Of a DNA stretch of 64,000 nt, positions 4,042 to 58,870 are shown piece by piece. The stretch is from Negaprion brevirostris (taxonomy: Eukaryota). Location: the NCBI GenBank assembly GCA_030324005.1, contig JARDVH010000193.1:92359807-92423806 (forward strand), read 5' to 3'. Both the position numbers and the translations under genes were made by a program. How positions within the stretch are numbered: position 1 is the stretch's first letter; each line of letters starts with the position of its first letter. Under the pieces are notes generated by a model. It searched no databases. It was given only the letters and a program-made list of their open reading frames with translations, and was not told the DNA's origin.

Positions 4042-5142
4042 TCCCTTCCCTTTTATTTCTGTGATCATGGCAACAAATGTCTACAATGTTAAACGTAGGA
4101 TCGATGATACTGAAGACTCAGTGCTATGCACTGTTAATCATACACAGTCAATAAGAAAGTTGATCAGGAGTAGGTCTATTCCTCTTTAGTTGTATACAAC
4201 ATTCTGGAATTTAGCTGTCCTTGACCCTGGAAGTAATTCTACACTGTGCTCGCATGGTATAGTAGTGAAGGCACAATCATCAGGCAACTCAGACTCAACT
4301 AAGTCTGCTGTAGCAGATCGCAGAATTAGTGACTAAAGGAGTTGGTACTTCTGGAAATGATTTGGAGAAATGTGTCAGAAAAAAATTAGTTTTTGCTAAA
4401 ACTATTGATTGATACCATTTCTGAATTGCAGCATAATTACATGGTAACACTCAATCTCCTTCTTGAAATGAGCGTTTTGCTCTTGCATCTCATCTAGCAA
4501 CTTGAGATTGTTATTAACAATCAACTATTCTAAAGTTTCTGGAGGTAATAAATCTAACATAGCTCTCTCCTTTCTCTTTAAGAATAGTACTGCAGATGAA
4601 TTTTGGGTAGTCGCACAAATAGTCTTTCTATAAGATGCCAAAAAGCTATTCACAAAATATGTTAATGAAACTTCTGCTTTTAAAGAATATTTCCAGGATT
4701 ATACAAATCTTTCAGCTAATCCATTGGCTAGGATTTTACATGCTGAATACCACTTACTTTGAGATAGTCCTCAAGCTCTTGTGAATTACACTGTGGGCCA
4801 TTATCGCTAACAACATCTACATGCAATTGTTGCCGTGGTGTTTTAGACCACTCCCAAGGCAGTAAAGGAGACAACAGTAGTGTATTTCTTATTTGTACAC
4901 AGGATTGACACCCTCCCACTTTCTTTTCAATCTCAGCATCCAGACACGGCAACCAAAAATAACTACGCGCTAATTTCTTCTTCAGTACCATACCAGGATG
5001 TCTTTCATGTAGTTGTTCAAGAACTTTTCCACACATACTTGGAGAAATAATCACTTTGATTCCCCACAATAAACATCCACTCACTAGAGCGTTTTTTGAT
5101 ACATCTGATTTCAAATCAGGATGCAACAATGCATTCAATGAA

Positions 5143-5420
5143 TCTCAGAATCCCTACAGTGCAGAAAGAGGCCACTTGGTCCATCGTGCCTGTCCCAGCA
5201 ACAATCCAATCCAAACCCTGTCCCTATAACCCCATGTAATTACCCTGCTAGTCCCCCTGACTTTAAGGGGCAAATTTGCATGGCCAATAAACCTAAGCTG
5301 CACATTTTTGGTCTGTGGGAGGAAACTGGAGCACCCAGAGACACAGAGAATGTGCAAACTCCACACAGACAGTGTTGGAATTTTAGCCAGGTCCCTGGCA
5401 CTGAGAGCCAGCTACTGTCC
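5143..5420 (-). mobile_element. HE1-like SINE nested in Gypsy integrase
   Basis: Same V-domain and tail as the 1615-1931 copy. Confidence 0.85.
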
Positions 5421-11666: not shown

Positions 11667-12381
11667 AATTTATTGGAATTCTTTGAGGACAACGAGAGTG
11701 GTGGACAACAGGAAACCGGTGGATGTGGTGTATTTGGATTTCAGAAGGCATTCGACAAGGTGCCACACAAAAGGCTGCTGCATAAGATAAAGGTGCATGC
11801 CATTATGGGTAATTATTAGCACGGATAGAAGATTGGTTAAGTACCAGAAAGCAAAGAGTGGGGATAAATGGGTGTTTTTCTAGTTGGCATCATTGGTGTG
11901 CCTCAGGGATCAGTTTTGGGATTGCAATTGTTTACAATTTACATAGATGATTTGAAGTTGGGGACCAAGTGTAGTGTGTCAAAGTTTGCAGATGACACCA
12001 AGATGAGTGGTAGAGCAAAGTTTGCTGAGGGCACTGAAAGTTTGCAAAGGGATATAAGTAGTCTAAATGAGTGGGCAAGGGTCTGGCAGATGGAGTACAA
12101 TGCTGGTAAATGTGAGGTCGTCCATTTTGGTAGGGATAACAGCAAAATGGTCTATTATTTAAATTGTAAACAATTGCAATATGCTGCTATCCAGAGGGAC
12201 CTGGGTGTCCTTGCACATGAATCACAAAATTTTGGTTTCCAGGTGCAGCAGGTGATTAAGAAGGAAAATAGAATTGTGTCCTTCTTTGCAAAAGGAATGG
12301 AGTTTAAAGAGAGAGGTTATGTTGCAGCTGTATAAGGTGATGGTAAGGCCACACCTGGAGTACTGTGTACAGATTTGGTCT
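11667..12381 (+). mobile_element. CR1 LINE RT fragment, inverted relative to the 10225-11566 copy
   Basis: VDVVYLDF..KAFDKVPHKRL; GVPQGSVLGLQLFTIYIDDL..KFADDTK. Confidence 0.95.
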
Positions 12382-35254: not shown

Positions 35255-35564
35255 ATGTCAGATAGAGGGAAAGGTGGTAAAAGGCTTGGTAAAGGTGGAG
35301 CCAAACAGCACTGCAAGGTGCTCCGTGACAAATATTCAAGGCATTACCAAGCCTGCCATCAGGCATCTGGCTCGCCGCAGAGGCGTCAAGTGATCTCCAG
35401 CTTGATCTACGAGGAGGTCCGCAGGGTGTTGAAGGTGTTTTTGGAGAATGTGATCAGGGAATTGGTGACCTACACTAACGTGTCAGCACAAAACAGTGAC
35501 CACCATGGATGTGGTGTACGCGCTAAAGCGCCAAAGGCGGACCCTGTATGGCTTTGATGGTTGA
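35255..35564 (+). pseudogene. H4: Histone H4 pseudogene (orphon), full length but frameshifted
   Basis: [25 protein letters not shown] / [20 protein letters not shown] / [28 protein letters not shown] / [24 protein letters not shown]; at least three frameshifts and many substitutions in an almost invariant protein. Confidence 0.95.
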
Positions 35565-35720
35565 GGACTGTGTAAAGGGGAGCAGATGACCAAACAACTC
35601 CATAAGCACATTGATGTTGTCAAATCTATCCTGTCGCCTACATGGGACACATTCAGTGCCTCAAGAACTATGGTTTAGTTTTTGGGCCTCCTTCAATTAT
35701 TGCAAAAATTTATGATTAAC

Positions 35721-35760
35721 ATCGCTTCTCAGCCTTTTCGGCTAAGATCAAGTGTAGTAT
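35721..35760 (+). ncRNA. U2 snRNA 5' fragment (nt 1-39), not a full gene
   Basis: ATCGCTTCTCAGCCTTTTCGGCTAAGATCAAGTGTAGTAT versus vertebrate U2 ATCGCTTCTCGGCCTTTTGGCTAAGATCAAGTGTAGTAT (one substitution, one insertion); homology stops after the branch-point pairing sequence. Confidence 0.9.
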
Positions 35761-36034
35761 GGACATGCTGTGCTGGTTGAAGTCATTAGGTTACATTTTT
35801 GCTTCATTTGAAGCAATTTTTAAAAGTGGCATCTTGGCCTTTTGGCTAAGATGCAGATGAGAGCAAGCCTTGGAGGAAGAGCTATGCCTACTCCAGTCAG
35901 CTTGGATCATGTTGATCAAGCCCAAGACAGGAGGTGAGAGCCTTGTATTGTCAGCTTGGATTGGGAATGCCTCTGAGACCCTGAATTGGACTTGATTGGA
36001 TTGAATTGGAATAAAAAAAGGATTTTAAAAAAAA
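35721..36034 (+). mobile_element. Candidate U2-headed SINE-like retroelement
   Basis: U2 head, second U2 stem-loop I at 35829-35854, further hairpins, (TTGGA/TTGAA)n, AATAAA and A-rich tail; no convincing TSD. Confidence 0.5.
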
Positions 36035-37029
36035 CAATAGCAACAAGAAATTAACCAAAATTATAACTGTTTCAAATAGTGTTAGGAATTGCAATAGAAA
36101 CTAAGCAAATGCATTCTTCCATTTTAAAAGAAATTTTGAGTATTTTTGGTATTGGAAATGTAATGCACAGGTGCAGGCAGGAATAGTTTTACTTAGAGTA
36201 AATTGCATTTTTTTAAAAAGTGTGTTTTTAGGCAGGTGACAGCCTGTTTCTAGAGATGCCAGTGAAAGTAAAAGTAAGTATTATAAATTGTTACAGTATT
36301 TTCAGTTAGAGTTGTAAATGTAATAAGTAGAAAATATTTCCTACTGAAAGCCTCACTATGTTACTTGGGGCCAGCCAGTAAAATAGTAGTCCGTACGCAG
36401 TATATACTTACATGCTTCTTTAGATTACATTGACTTTTCACTAAATATAAACAGCTGTTGGTTGAAAGAGCAATGCCAGTTTATTGATACAATAGGTGAA
36501 TCATTTGAATGTGTAAGCCGTGGTTGCTAGATCCTTGAGACATACTTACGTTGTGCAGTAATAATGAGAATGCTGAGTTCCATAGGTGGCTTTTTTGGCA
36601 AGGGATAAATAATGTATTAGTCTTTTGATATATGTTTAGGTTACCCACCCTTTGTGTATTGCCACAGTATCACTGAAATTTGGATAAACTACCACTACAT
36701 CATATTGAATAGTCTCCAGTCTGAGATTCCATTTTGGGATTAAAAGCATTGATGCTATAAGTGTATACATTAATGATTTGTTTTGTGTGTGTCTCAGGTC
36801 ATTGGCTATGTGTATCTTTAAAATGGGATAATGTGAAACTTTCACTTTATCCTTGAAATGTGGATGCACATGGCAAGGTAAACGTTAAACAGGATTGATG
36901 TCAAGAAAATCCGTTTCATCTGAGACAACCATTTTAAAAGAAAATGTTTTAGCATTAAGCTTGATTTTAAAATTGTGAAAAGCAGAATATGAAGGCCATC
37001 CATTGAATTAGTTGTCATGGTACAGAAGG

Positions 37030-55816: not shown

Positions 55817-55893
55817 TTTTTTTTCCAAAAATATACTTTATTCATAAAAATCTCAATTAATCTATTGCAAACGTACAGGCCATTAAATAGCAA
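55817..55893 (-). mobile_element. 3' end of an L1/Tx1-type LINE, cut by a gap
   Basis: Minus strand TTTATGAATAAAGTATATTTTTGGAAAAAAAA (polyA signal plus A tail). Confidence 0.55.
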
Positions 55894-58147: not shown

Positions 58148-58293
58148 CATGATGTAGAGATGCCAACGTTGGATTGGAGTAAACACAGTAAGAAGTCTCA
58201 TAACACCAGGTTAAAGTCCAACAAGTTTATTTTGTAGCATAAGCCACTAGCTTTCGGAGCACTGCTCATTCACCTGATGAAGGAGCAATGTTC
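58148..58293. mobile_element. Penelope pLTR with inversion point inside the hammerhead core
   Basis: CATGATGTAGAGATGCC..ACAGTAAGAAGTCTCATAACACCAGGTTAAAGTCCAAC..CCACTAGCTTTCGGAGCACTGCTC then CACCTGATGAAGGAGCA on the opposite strand. Confidence 0.9.
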
Positions 58294-58870
58294 GTGTAGT
58301 ATAGGAAGCCTCGATTCCCCCCGATGGCAAAATTGGAGGGTGGATGCAGAAGGCCTCCCTTGGGGTCAGTCTTCAGAGTCACTGTCACCTGTCTTTTACA
58401 GGTCCAGATCCCGTATTTGTCCATGACGTCCACGCTCTCTCCCTTCACCGCCACATACCTGGAGAGGGATGTCAGCACATCAGCCACAGGGACATAGGGT
58501 TTATATATCTGAAATATGATAACCTGGTTCCGCTGGGACGGCATGGTGAACAGGGGCTCCGCCGTCAGAATAGAGAGGGGCCCCTCTTTGCTTTTCTCCT
58601 TCAAGACTGTTAGGAACTTAACGCTTCCTGACAGGCTCCTGAAACTGACATCCATGTAGAGCTGGTTGCTGTATTCAGCCACACTGTAGACGTCTGCTGC
58701 TTGGAACCCGCAGCACTCGAACAGTACCTTCTTCACGACAAAGTCGTGGCCCACGGGTGAGTCTCCTCCCGAAGCCTTCACCCGGATGGTGTTGGGCAGC
58801 TCTTGGCCTGTAGCTCTCGATGCAGCTGCAGCCATAGCTCGATGAGAAGTTACTGAACTTCGTGACAACT
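58293..58870 (-). mobile_element. L1-Tx1 clade ORF1 (ZCCHC3-like) fragment, open frame, 3'-truncated before the zinc knuckles
   Basis: MAAAASRA..NTIRV..FVVKKVLFECCGF..DVSF..YKPYVPVADVLTSLSRY..DKYGIWTCKRQ..HPPSNFAIGGNRGFLYY; probable ATG at 58835; GC-rich relative to flanks. Confidence 0.85.

Follow-up and report, generated by a model that had tools for sequence, protein, structure and literature searches.

The U2-headed element in the window

The sequence at positions 35,721 to 36,034 of the window (the whole 64,000-nucleotide stretch of Negaprion brevirostris DNA that was analysed) opens as U2 snRNA and continues as something else, which raises the question of whether it is a chance truncation beside unrelated DNA or one copy of a retroelement family and, in the latter case, how such a family is transcribed and moved. 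That the genome is a shark's is borne out by its RAG2, which among 90 matches is 95% identical to a smoothhound protein, 69-82% to proteins of other cartilaginous fishes and no more than 60% to any other. The head differs from a U2 gene of the same genome (L031) by one G-to-A change and one inserted C, and alignment to that gene bears out what the initial annotation had proposed, namely a start at U2 nt 1 and a loss of homology at nt 39. The head accounts for the sole Rfam match in the window, which is U2 at 46.4 bits (cut-off 46; a true U2 gene scores 188); the alignment breaks after nt 39, and stem IIa, the Sm site and the 3' stems are not intact as they would be in a functional U2. A hairpin-rich body of about 250 bases lies between the head and AATAAA (36010-36015), and the hairpin arms, the repeated GTCAGCTTGGAT, the TTGGA/TTGAA repeats and the A-runs (to 36034) that had been pointed out are all present (Table 1); no tandem repeats were found inside the element. 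The target site duplication (TSD) suggested earlier (ATTAAC at 35715-35720 and 36050-36055) is at chance level, a score of at least 6 being reached by 19 of 117 mismatched flank pairs.

Table 1. Parts of the U2-headed element, and LINE fragments elsewhere in the window
Feature	Position	Strand	Basis
U2 snRNA head, nt 1-39 (stem-loop I and branch-point-pairing region)	35721..35760	+	Rfam, U2 alignment
4-nt loop and antisense arm, predicted pairing with U2 nt ~12-39	35761..35793	+	Folds
Spacer with small hairpin and T-run	35794..35828	+	Fold
Second U2-derived piece (U2 nt ~7-27), extended to a closed hairpin	35829..35854	+	21/21 identity in copy L011
Hairpin unit 1 (GATCAAGCC ... TCAGCTTGGATC in the family)	35859..35908	+	Homology to unit 2
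Hairpin unit 2; 3' arm aligns to U2 nt ~44-60 via older family B	35914..35962	+	
Hairpin corresponding in position to U2 stem-loop IIb, and TTGGA/TTGAA repeats	35965..36009	+	Three-way alignment
AATAAA and A-rich tail	36010..36034	+	Common to the family
Keno-type LINE 3' end and poly(A), off-target	55817..55869	-	87% to L079 3' UTR
Keno-type Tx1 LINE ORF1 fragment	58293..58840	-	81% to L091; ZCCHC3-type RNA-binding domains

The alignment to U2 of the last segment before AATAAA stops shortly ahead of the Sm site; the hairpin in this segment has a 7-nt deletion in the window copy. The ORF1 fragment of the Keno-type LINE is not physically linked to the SINE copy. A histone H4-like copy that has decayed, with stop codons and frameshifts in it (35319-35564, plus strand), ends about 160 bases upstream of the element; we take it to be H4 from its translation, and Pfam gave no match on the frame searched. 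Other retroelement fragments in the window are an integrase zinc-binding domain (4731-5144, minus strand) and a reverse transcriptase (RT; 11868-12332, plus strand).

A dispersed family with a fixed head

With the body alone as query, 2790 candidates were found in the genome, and all 40 of those scored were near full length (the query itself and 39 others at 89-90%). Among 30 body matches that were fetched, 29 carry the U2 head and the thirtieth is nested inside another copy, so the body is neither single-copy nor headless. In 28 of the 30 copies the last U2 nucleotide of the head is one of nt 34-40, and in 20 the first is one of nt 1-8. Exact matches to a 22-letter pattern that spans the junction of head and body number 900, as against none for its reversed control; since the pattern matches 13 of 48 junction-spanning copies (9 of 29 and 4 of 19 in two samples), about 3,300 headed copies are estimated for this gappy assembly. 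When 29 copies were chosen by their tails alone, 19 spanned the U2 head, seven stopped at assembly gaps and one at a contig end, one had a head remnant and one started at the junction. The dispersed, non-autonomous, U2-chimeric retroelement that had been postulated is thereby shown to exist, as a poly(A)-tailed family of about 305 bp in which the U2 head has a fixed end at nt ~40.

The window copy is 93% identical to the family majority sequence. Two samples of 18 and 19 copies, chosen without regard to likeness to the window copy, average 92-93% identity to the majority with a best value of 97%, at which the family looks no longer active. At least half of the sampled words of a copy occur in 17 DNA-type or unlabelled sequencing runs under seven organism labels (some runs being unlabelled), and this word content suggests that the family predates several speciations; six runs guessed to be RNA hold 0.22-0.30 of the copy's words, a figure that weighs neither way. 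TSD candidates of 10-14 bp (score of at least 10) were found in 3 of 30 copies, one of them A-rich and two of the 30 copies being unsearchable, and in none of 117 mismatched pairs. The flanks of 32 loci, compared with one another in view of the preference of crocodilian SINEU families for Mariner-N4 targets, share scattered common repeats only, at no fixed distance.

The copies have in common an snRNA head, a length below 500 bp, a non-coding sequence, a 3' poly(A) and a dispersed distribution, and the fixed junction, the subfamilies and a short form identify them as a family derived from master copies and not as independent chimeras. They have no internal Pol III promoter: the B box is absent, two loose A-box-like matches to a simple pattern are present, and the element contains four T-runs.

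The body is largely derived from U2

About 230 bp of the body had been described as unrelated to U2, which proved incorrect, as the antisense arm, a second U2 head and, by way of an older family, the 3' half all derive from U2. Hairpin units 1 and 2 are homologous to each other (0 of 3000 shuffles scored as well), and locus L204 is a short form of the element that begins at the second U2 head. The older family (family B; about 225 bp) opens with U2 nt 1-33, which a hairpin separates from a degenerate stretch of U2 nt 44-170 that includes the Sm site (0 of 1000 shuffles); 13 short copies are 86-92% identical to their own majority sequence, and a 29-letter pattern with two mismatches allowed has at least 815 matches. 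The 3' half of the window family aligns to family B (0 of 1000 shuffles) and ends just before the Sm site. Direct comparison of the window family with U2 is weak (42 of 2000 shuffles; 361 of 1000 when unfocused), so the homology of the 3' half to U2 is transitive, via family B. Family B is older than the window family, and the pair forms two layers of different age, the first a whole U2 that has been remodelled, the second a composite descendant.

Two other placements of U2 in the window copy were rejected: a full-length Rfam alignment, in which U2 41-191 matched the body no better than in 361 of 1000 shuffles, and an assignment of the spacer after the antisense arm to the U2 Sm region (532 of 2000 shuffles, not significant). 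Family B loci include L184-L199 and L180-L183, L185 and L188, and some copies have an extra inverted-repeat insert of about 130 bp after the head.

A Keno-type LINE at the same U2 site

Keno belongs to the Tx1 clade and was reportedly described by Kojima and Fujiwara in 2004. The genome contains a LINE with a ZCCHC3-type ORF1, an AP endonuclease and RT (Pfam), the proteins of which are 43-45% identical to fish Tx1-type proteins; one of these is named transposon TX1 149 kDa, and the name Keno is on none of the LINE's protein matches. The 3' flank of Keno within U2 is given as TCTGTTCTTATCAG in PMC6136364, and the 3' end of the shark LINE adjoins U2 at this flank in L079/L135 and L101, and abuts U2 5 nt further in at L202. 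The LINE thus resembles Keno in its AP endonuclease, its RT and its published 3' flank, and its insertion site is U2 nt 38/39, although most copies are off-target. Utopia, which had been named as another possible partner, is not implicated: according to PMC4640811 it inserts at the same U2 site with a restriction-like endonuclease, whereas the endonuclease of the LINE found here is of the AP type.

U2 pieces of varied length are present on 26 of 29 LINE 5' ends. In the series examined (L150-L179) the U2 heads are 34-58 nt long, even far from U2 genes, and at L152, L155, L165 and L171 they are stacked two to several times, which likely reflects repeated template jumps of the Keno-type LINE onto U2 RNA.

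The SINE shares the site of this LINE. An A-run adjoins U2 from nt 39 onward in nine places, where it follows the Keno 3' UTR twice, a full family copy three times (L136, L138, L141), and a family B copy, a SINE-like tail after a gap, a gap and a bare head once each; a fourth family copy followed by U2 from nt ~39 onward is L214. L138 and L141 lack U2 upstream DNA and terminate downstream where ordinary U2 retrocopies do; like L136 and L214, they are equally well explained as read-through copies of a U2-embedded master or as insertions into U2 retrocopies, both of which need the Keno site. The same position within the head of the SINE has itself been a target, of the SINE at L104 and L143 and of a Keno tail at L103; these are among nine distinct places with an A-run before the body, of which four have plain or truncated heads and two (L145, L146) were counted neither way. 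Nested A-run junctions number two, against 900 ordinary ones. Insertions at the U2 site are a small minority, with about eight loci seen among thousands of copies, and by our own arithmetic the probability that chance would put one of some thousands of copies in 2.7 Gb at a given base in any of a few dozen U2 copies is of order 1e-4. The overlap at the U2 site is 0-3 nt. Two gapped patterns had no matches in the genome, being too strict for the loci that were found afterwards.

The U2-site copies do not cluster in a poorly resolved, star-like tree of 76 copies (L141, with too short an alignment, was left out); a tail variant noticed post hoc in 4 of 5 U2-site copies and 3 of 80 others is suggestive only.

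The body had been thought to come from the LINE, and this idea was abandoned: no match to the LINE 3' UTR was found in the body or tail of 30 SINE copies, and the likeness to the Keno 5' hairpin, though apparent by eye, was equalled in 779 and 309 of 5000 shuffles. The SINE also differs from Keno in encoding nothing. Without likeness to the Keno tail or 5' end, the assignment of Keno as mobiliser is drawn from the target sites only. Apparent joins of Keno to the SINE at L078, L081, L085 and L093 were discarded, as they run across assembly gaps.

Copies behind U2 upstream DNA

A tandem array of variant U2 genes (L036-L038 and L241; G000:C157, ~37.355 Mb) has a 492-bp unit with 84% identity to the main U2 and a different upstream sequence, and most of the insertions of Keno and of the SINE that follow upstream DNA are in decayed relatives of this array. 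Three further high-scoring U2 genes (L032, L033, L034), two of them on tiny contigs, have one more A ahead of the branch-point sequence and dissimilar flanks; they may stem from a contaminant, perhaps a parasite.

Upstream DNA of the variant array was found in 12 places. It is followed by a full copy of the family from +1 at L208, by U2 nt 1-39 and then a headed copy that runs to the contig end at L202, by the short form at L204, and by an older relative after a gap at L201; of the other places two have Keno 5' ends, one has Keno tail pieces, one a bare head and one an intact array, and three have spacer only. L208 (91.6%) and L202 are decayed. The main U2 promoter, examined in five places, is nowhere followed by a full copy, and the first array search (seven places) yielded no full master. 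At L055 the main U2 upstream DNA is followed by U2 nt 1-40, 14 family-like bases and a truncated Keno-type LINE. The suspected tie of the element to U2 promoters and to a Tx1 element that targets U2 is strongly supported by these copies behind U2-array upstream DNA together with those at the Keno site; the array upstream DNA is itself a putative promoter.

The L055 remnant lies upstream of, or is intronic to, exons that resemble the C-terminus of a MutL-family protein (L095; G000:C115, 499-509 kb, minus strand), presumably MLH3. Keno tail pieces joined to U2 by a few bases like the start of the SINE body, as at L055, are found in L079 (6142-6175 and 6578 onward, as oriented), and template jumps from Keno RNA to SINE RNA possibly produced the joining bases at both loci.

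How the family may be transcribed and moved

The genome thus contains the family with its fixed head and the LINE, both with copies at U2 nt 38/39, and copies of the family behind U2 upstream DNA. The element in the window is a decayed, dispersed copy of a family that was probably copied by the enzymes of the Keno-type LINE and probably transcribed from U2 promoters when a copy lay in a U2 gene. By this account the Keno endonuclease would occasionally open a U2 gene at nt 38/39, and a copy placed there would have the external snRNA promoter and U2 nt 1-39 in front of it; the U2-embedded locus would then act as a master, the RNA of which would start at U2 +1, so that the element would need no internal promoter, and would end at the AATAAA and A-tail or read on into the rest of U2. 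The Keno RT would prime on the A-tail and, being loosely specific here, would scatter most copies off-target, where they would be dead.

Transcription by other means is unlikely. Keno could move an element whose RNA arises by read-through from host genes or from flanking promoters, with the copies in U2 genes as by-products and not masters; flank-driven transcription was proposed by Kojima for SINEU-2 (PMC4494074), and both the dispersal of most copies and the lack of an intact master behind the main U2 promoter agree with it. However, the many heads that begin within the first eight nucleotides of U2, in copies with no shared flanks other than other repeats, are as expected of a start at U2 +1, and L208, L202 and L204 do lie behind U2-array upstream DNA.

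A different mover is improbable. If L1 or another Tx1 family moved most copies by their poly(A), with Keno responsible for only a few U2-site insertions, then the lack of homology to the Keno tail would be explained, as would TSD candidates of 10-14 bp at some dispersed copies where the U2 site has the short overlap given above. However, Keno is itself mostly off-target in this genome, so a second LINE is unneeded for dispersal, and the crocodilian SINEUs likewise have no tail homology to their Tx1 partner, according to PMC4494074.

It is highly improbable that a reshaped U2 variant serves sharks as a functional non-coding RNA gene and that the family consists of its processed pseudogenes. The fold of the majority sequence (z = -5.5), the star-like tree, and the stems kept with both sides changed between the window family, family B and U2 would suit such a gene, but the subfamilies, the short form, the older family and the nested copies are typical of SINE evolution, and no near-identical conserved source locus was seen, the best copy being that at 97%. 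That independent template switches joined U2 RNA to a headless element each time is scarcely credible and largely refuted by the fixed junction, for although Keno 5' ends have variable and sometimes multiple U2 heads and L030 and L202 have been re-headed, the 900 junctions are exact, the body opens with an arm antisense to the head, and headless full bodies are rare.

Comparison with known systems

The crocodilian SINEU-1, -2 and -3 families (Kojima 2015, PMC4494074) are reported there as found in crocodilians only and as tied to Tx1-Mar and Mariner targets, and their mode of transcription is left open in that account. Like them, the shark family is short and poly(A)-tailed, with a U2-derived head and T-runs and without a Pol III promoter or a LINE tail; like SINEU-1 it has stacked U2 pieces and partial duplications, and family B, like SINEU-3, is a remodelled U2. 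In both cases a Tx1 partner is proposed from common targets, and the partner LINEs have snRNA heads (PMC4494074). On these class features, compared by description, the shark family works like SINEU.

Among other elements, R2 SIDEs are deletion derivatives of a LINE of the ribosomal DNA that enter a multicopy RNA gene by way of a site-specific LINE and are transcribed by that gene. The shark element is likewise non-autonomous, with a probable site-specific LINE partner and a multicopy RNA gene as target, but R2 SIDEs stay in their target, whereas the shark element consists of sequence from the target RNA and is for the most part scattered. U2 retropseudogenes and U2/U6-L1 chimeras also have a 5' piece of snRNA joined by reverse transcription, but are described in PMC4494074 as one-off products with variable junctions, unlike a junction fixed in at least 900 copies. 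The tRNA-headed shark SINEs SacSINE1 and CmiSINE have A and B boxes and an L2 tail (PMC5499810), unlike this U2-headed family with no B box.

Keno is reported from frogs, fish, lancelet and hydra (PMC4494074, PMC4640811, PMC6136364), and sharks go unmentioned in the passages of those papers that treat it. No shark snRNA-headed SINE was found in the literature searched, which included the relevant passages of PMC4640811, PMC6136364, PMC4758252, PMC5499810, PMC7245038 and PMC4889948; within that literature the design has so far been described in print only from crocodilians, and a curated entry in Repbase or Dfam, both outside the scope of the search, is possible. The shark family extends the class of snRNA-headed SINEs from crocodilians to sharks and links it to a target-specific LINE, and the candidate source loci, with the element at +1 of U2-array upstream DNA and at the LINE cut site, make the question of transcription testable.

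An antisense arm predicted to cover the branch-point-pairing region

In the spliceosome U2 nt ~31-38 pairs with the branch point. The arm that follows the head is predicted to pair with U2 nt 25-39 in a 15-bp core with 5-6 G-U pairs. Of 58 copies 51 were alignable, and in these 97.6% of cells are paired, or 61.2% if G-U pairs are not counted. All six departures of the arm from the exact complement face G or U: they affect 6 of the 9 positions of that kind and none of the remaining 6 (p = 0.017, rising to 0.042 when one departure is counted as CpG decay). Such G-U-tolerant changes fit selection for RNA pairing or A-to-I editing of the duplex, four of them being A to G. As plain DNA the arm is no more similar to U2 than 548 of 2000 shuffles; it is visible only as RNA pairing.

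In the modelled structure the antisense arm would fold over the branch-point-pairing sequence and would prevent the RNA from behaving as a defective U2. More tentatively, with chances that we put a little below even, the family may have been a self-renewing parasite made from U2, lacking a promoter of its own, re-entering U2 genes through Keno and masking its branch-point pairing with the arm. The predicted masking suggests how a retroelement could carry a spliceosomal RNA without harm; the parasite, if real, would mean that snRNA-headed SINEs arose independently in sharks and in crocodilians, and would answer how such elements are transcribed.

The folding z of the whole window copy is -2.4 on the sense strand and -3.85 on the antisense strand, and does not single out the sense strand. 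The first 80 bases of the majority sequence fold with -27.3 kcal/mol on the sense strand and -8.3 kcal/mol on the other, and those of the window copy with -18.9 and -13.3 kcal/mol.
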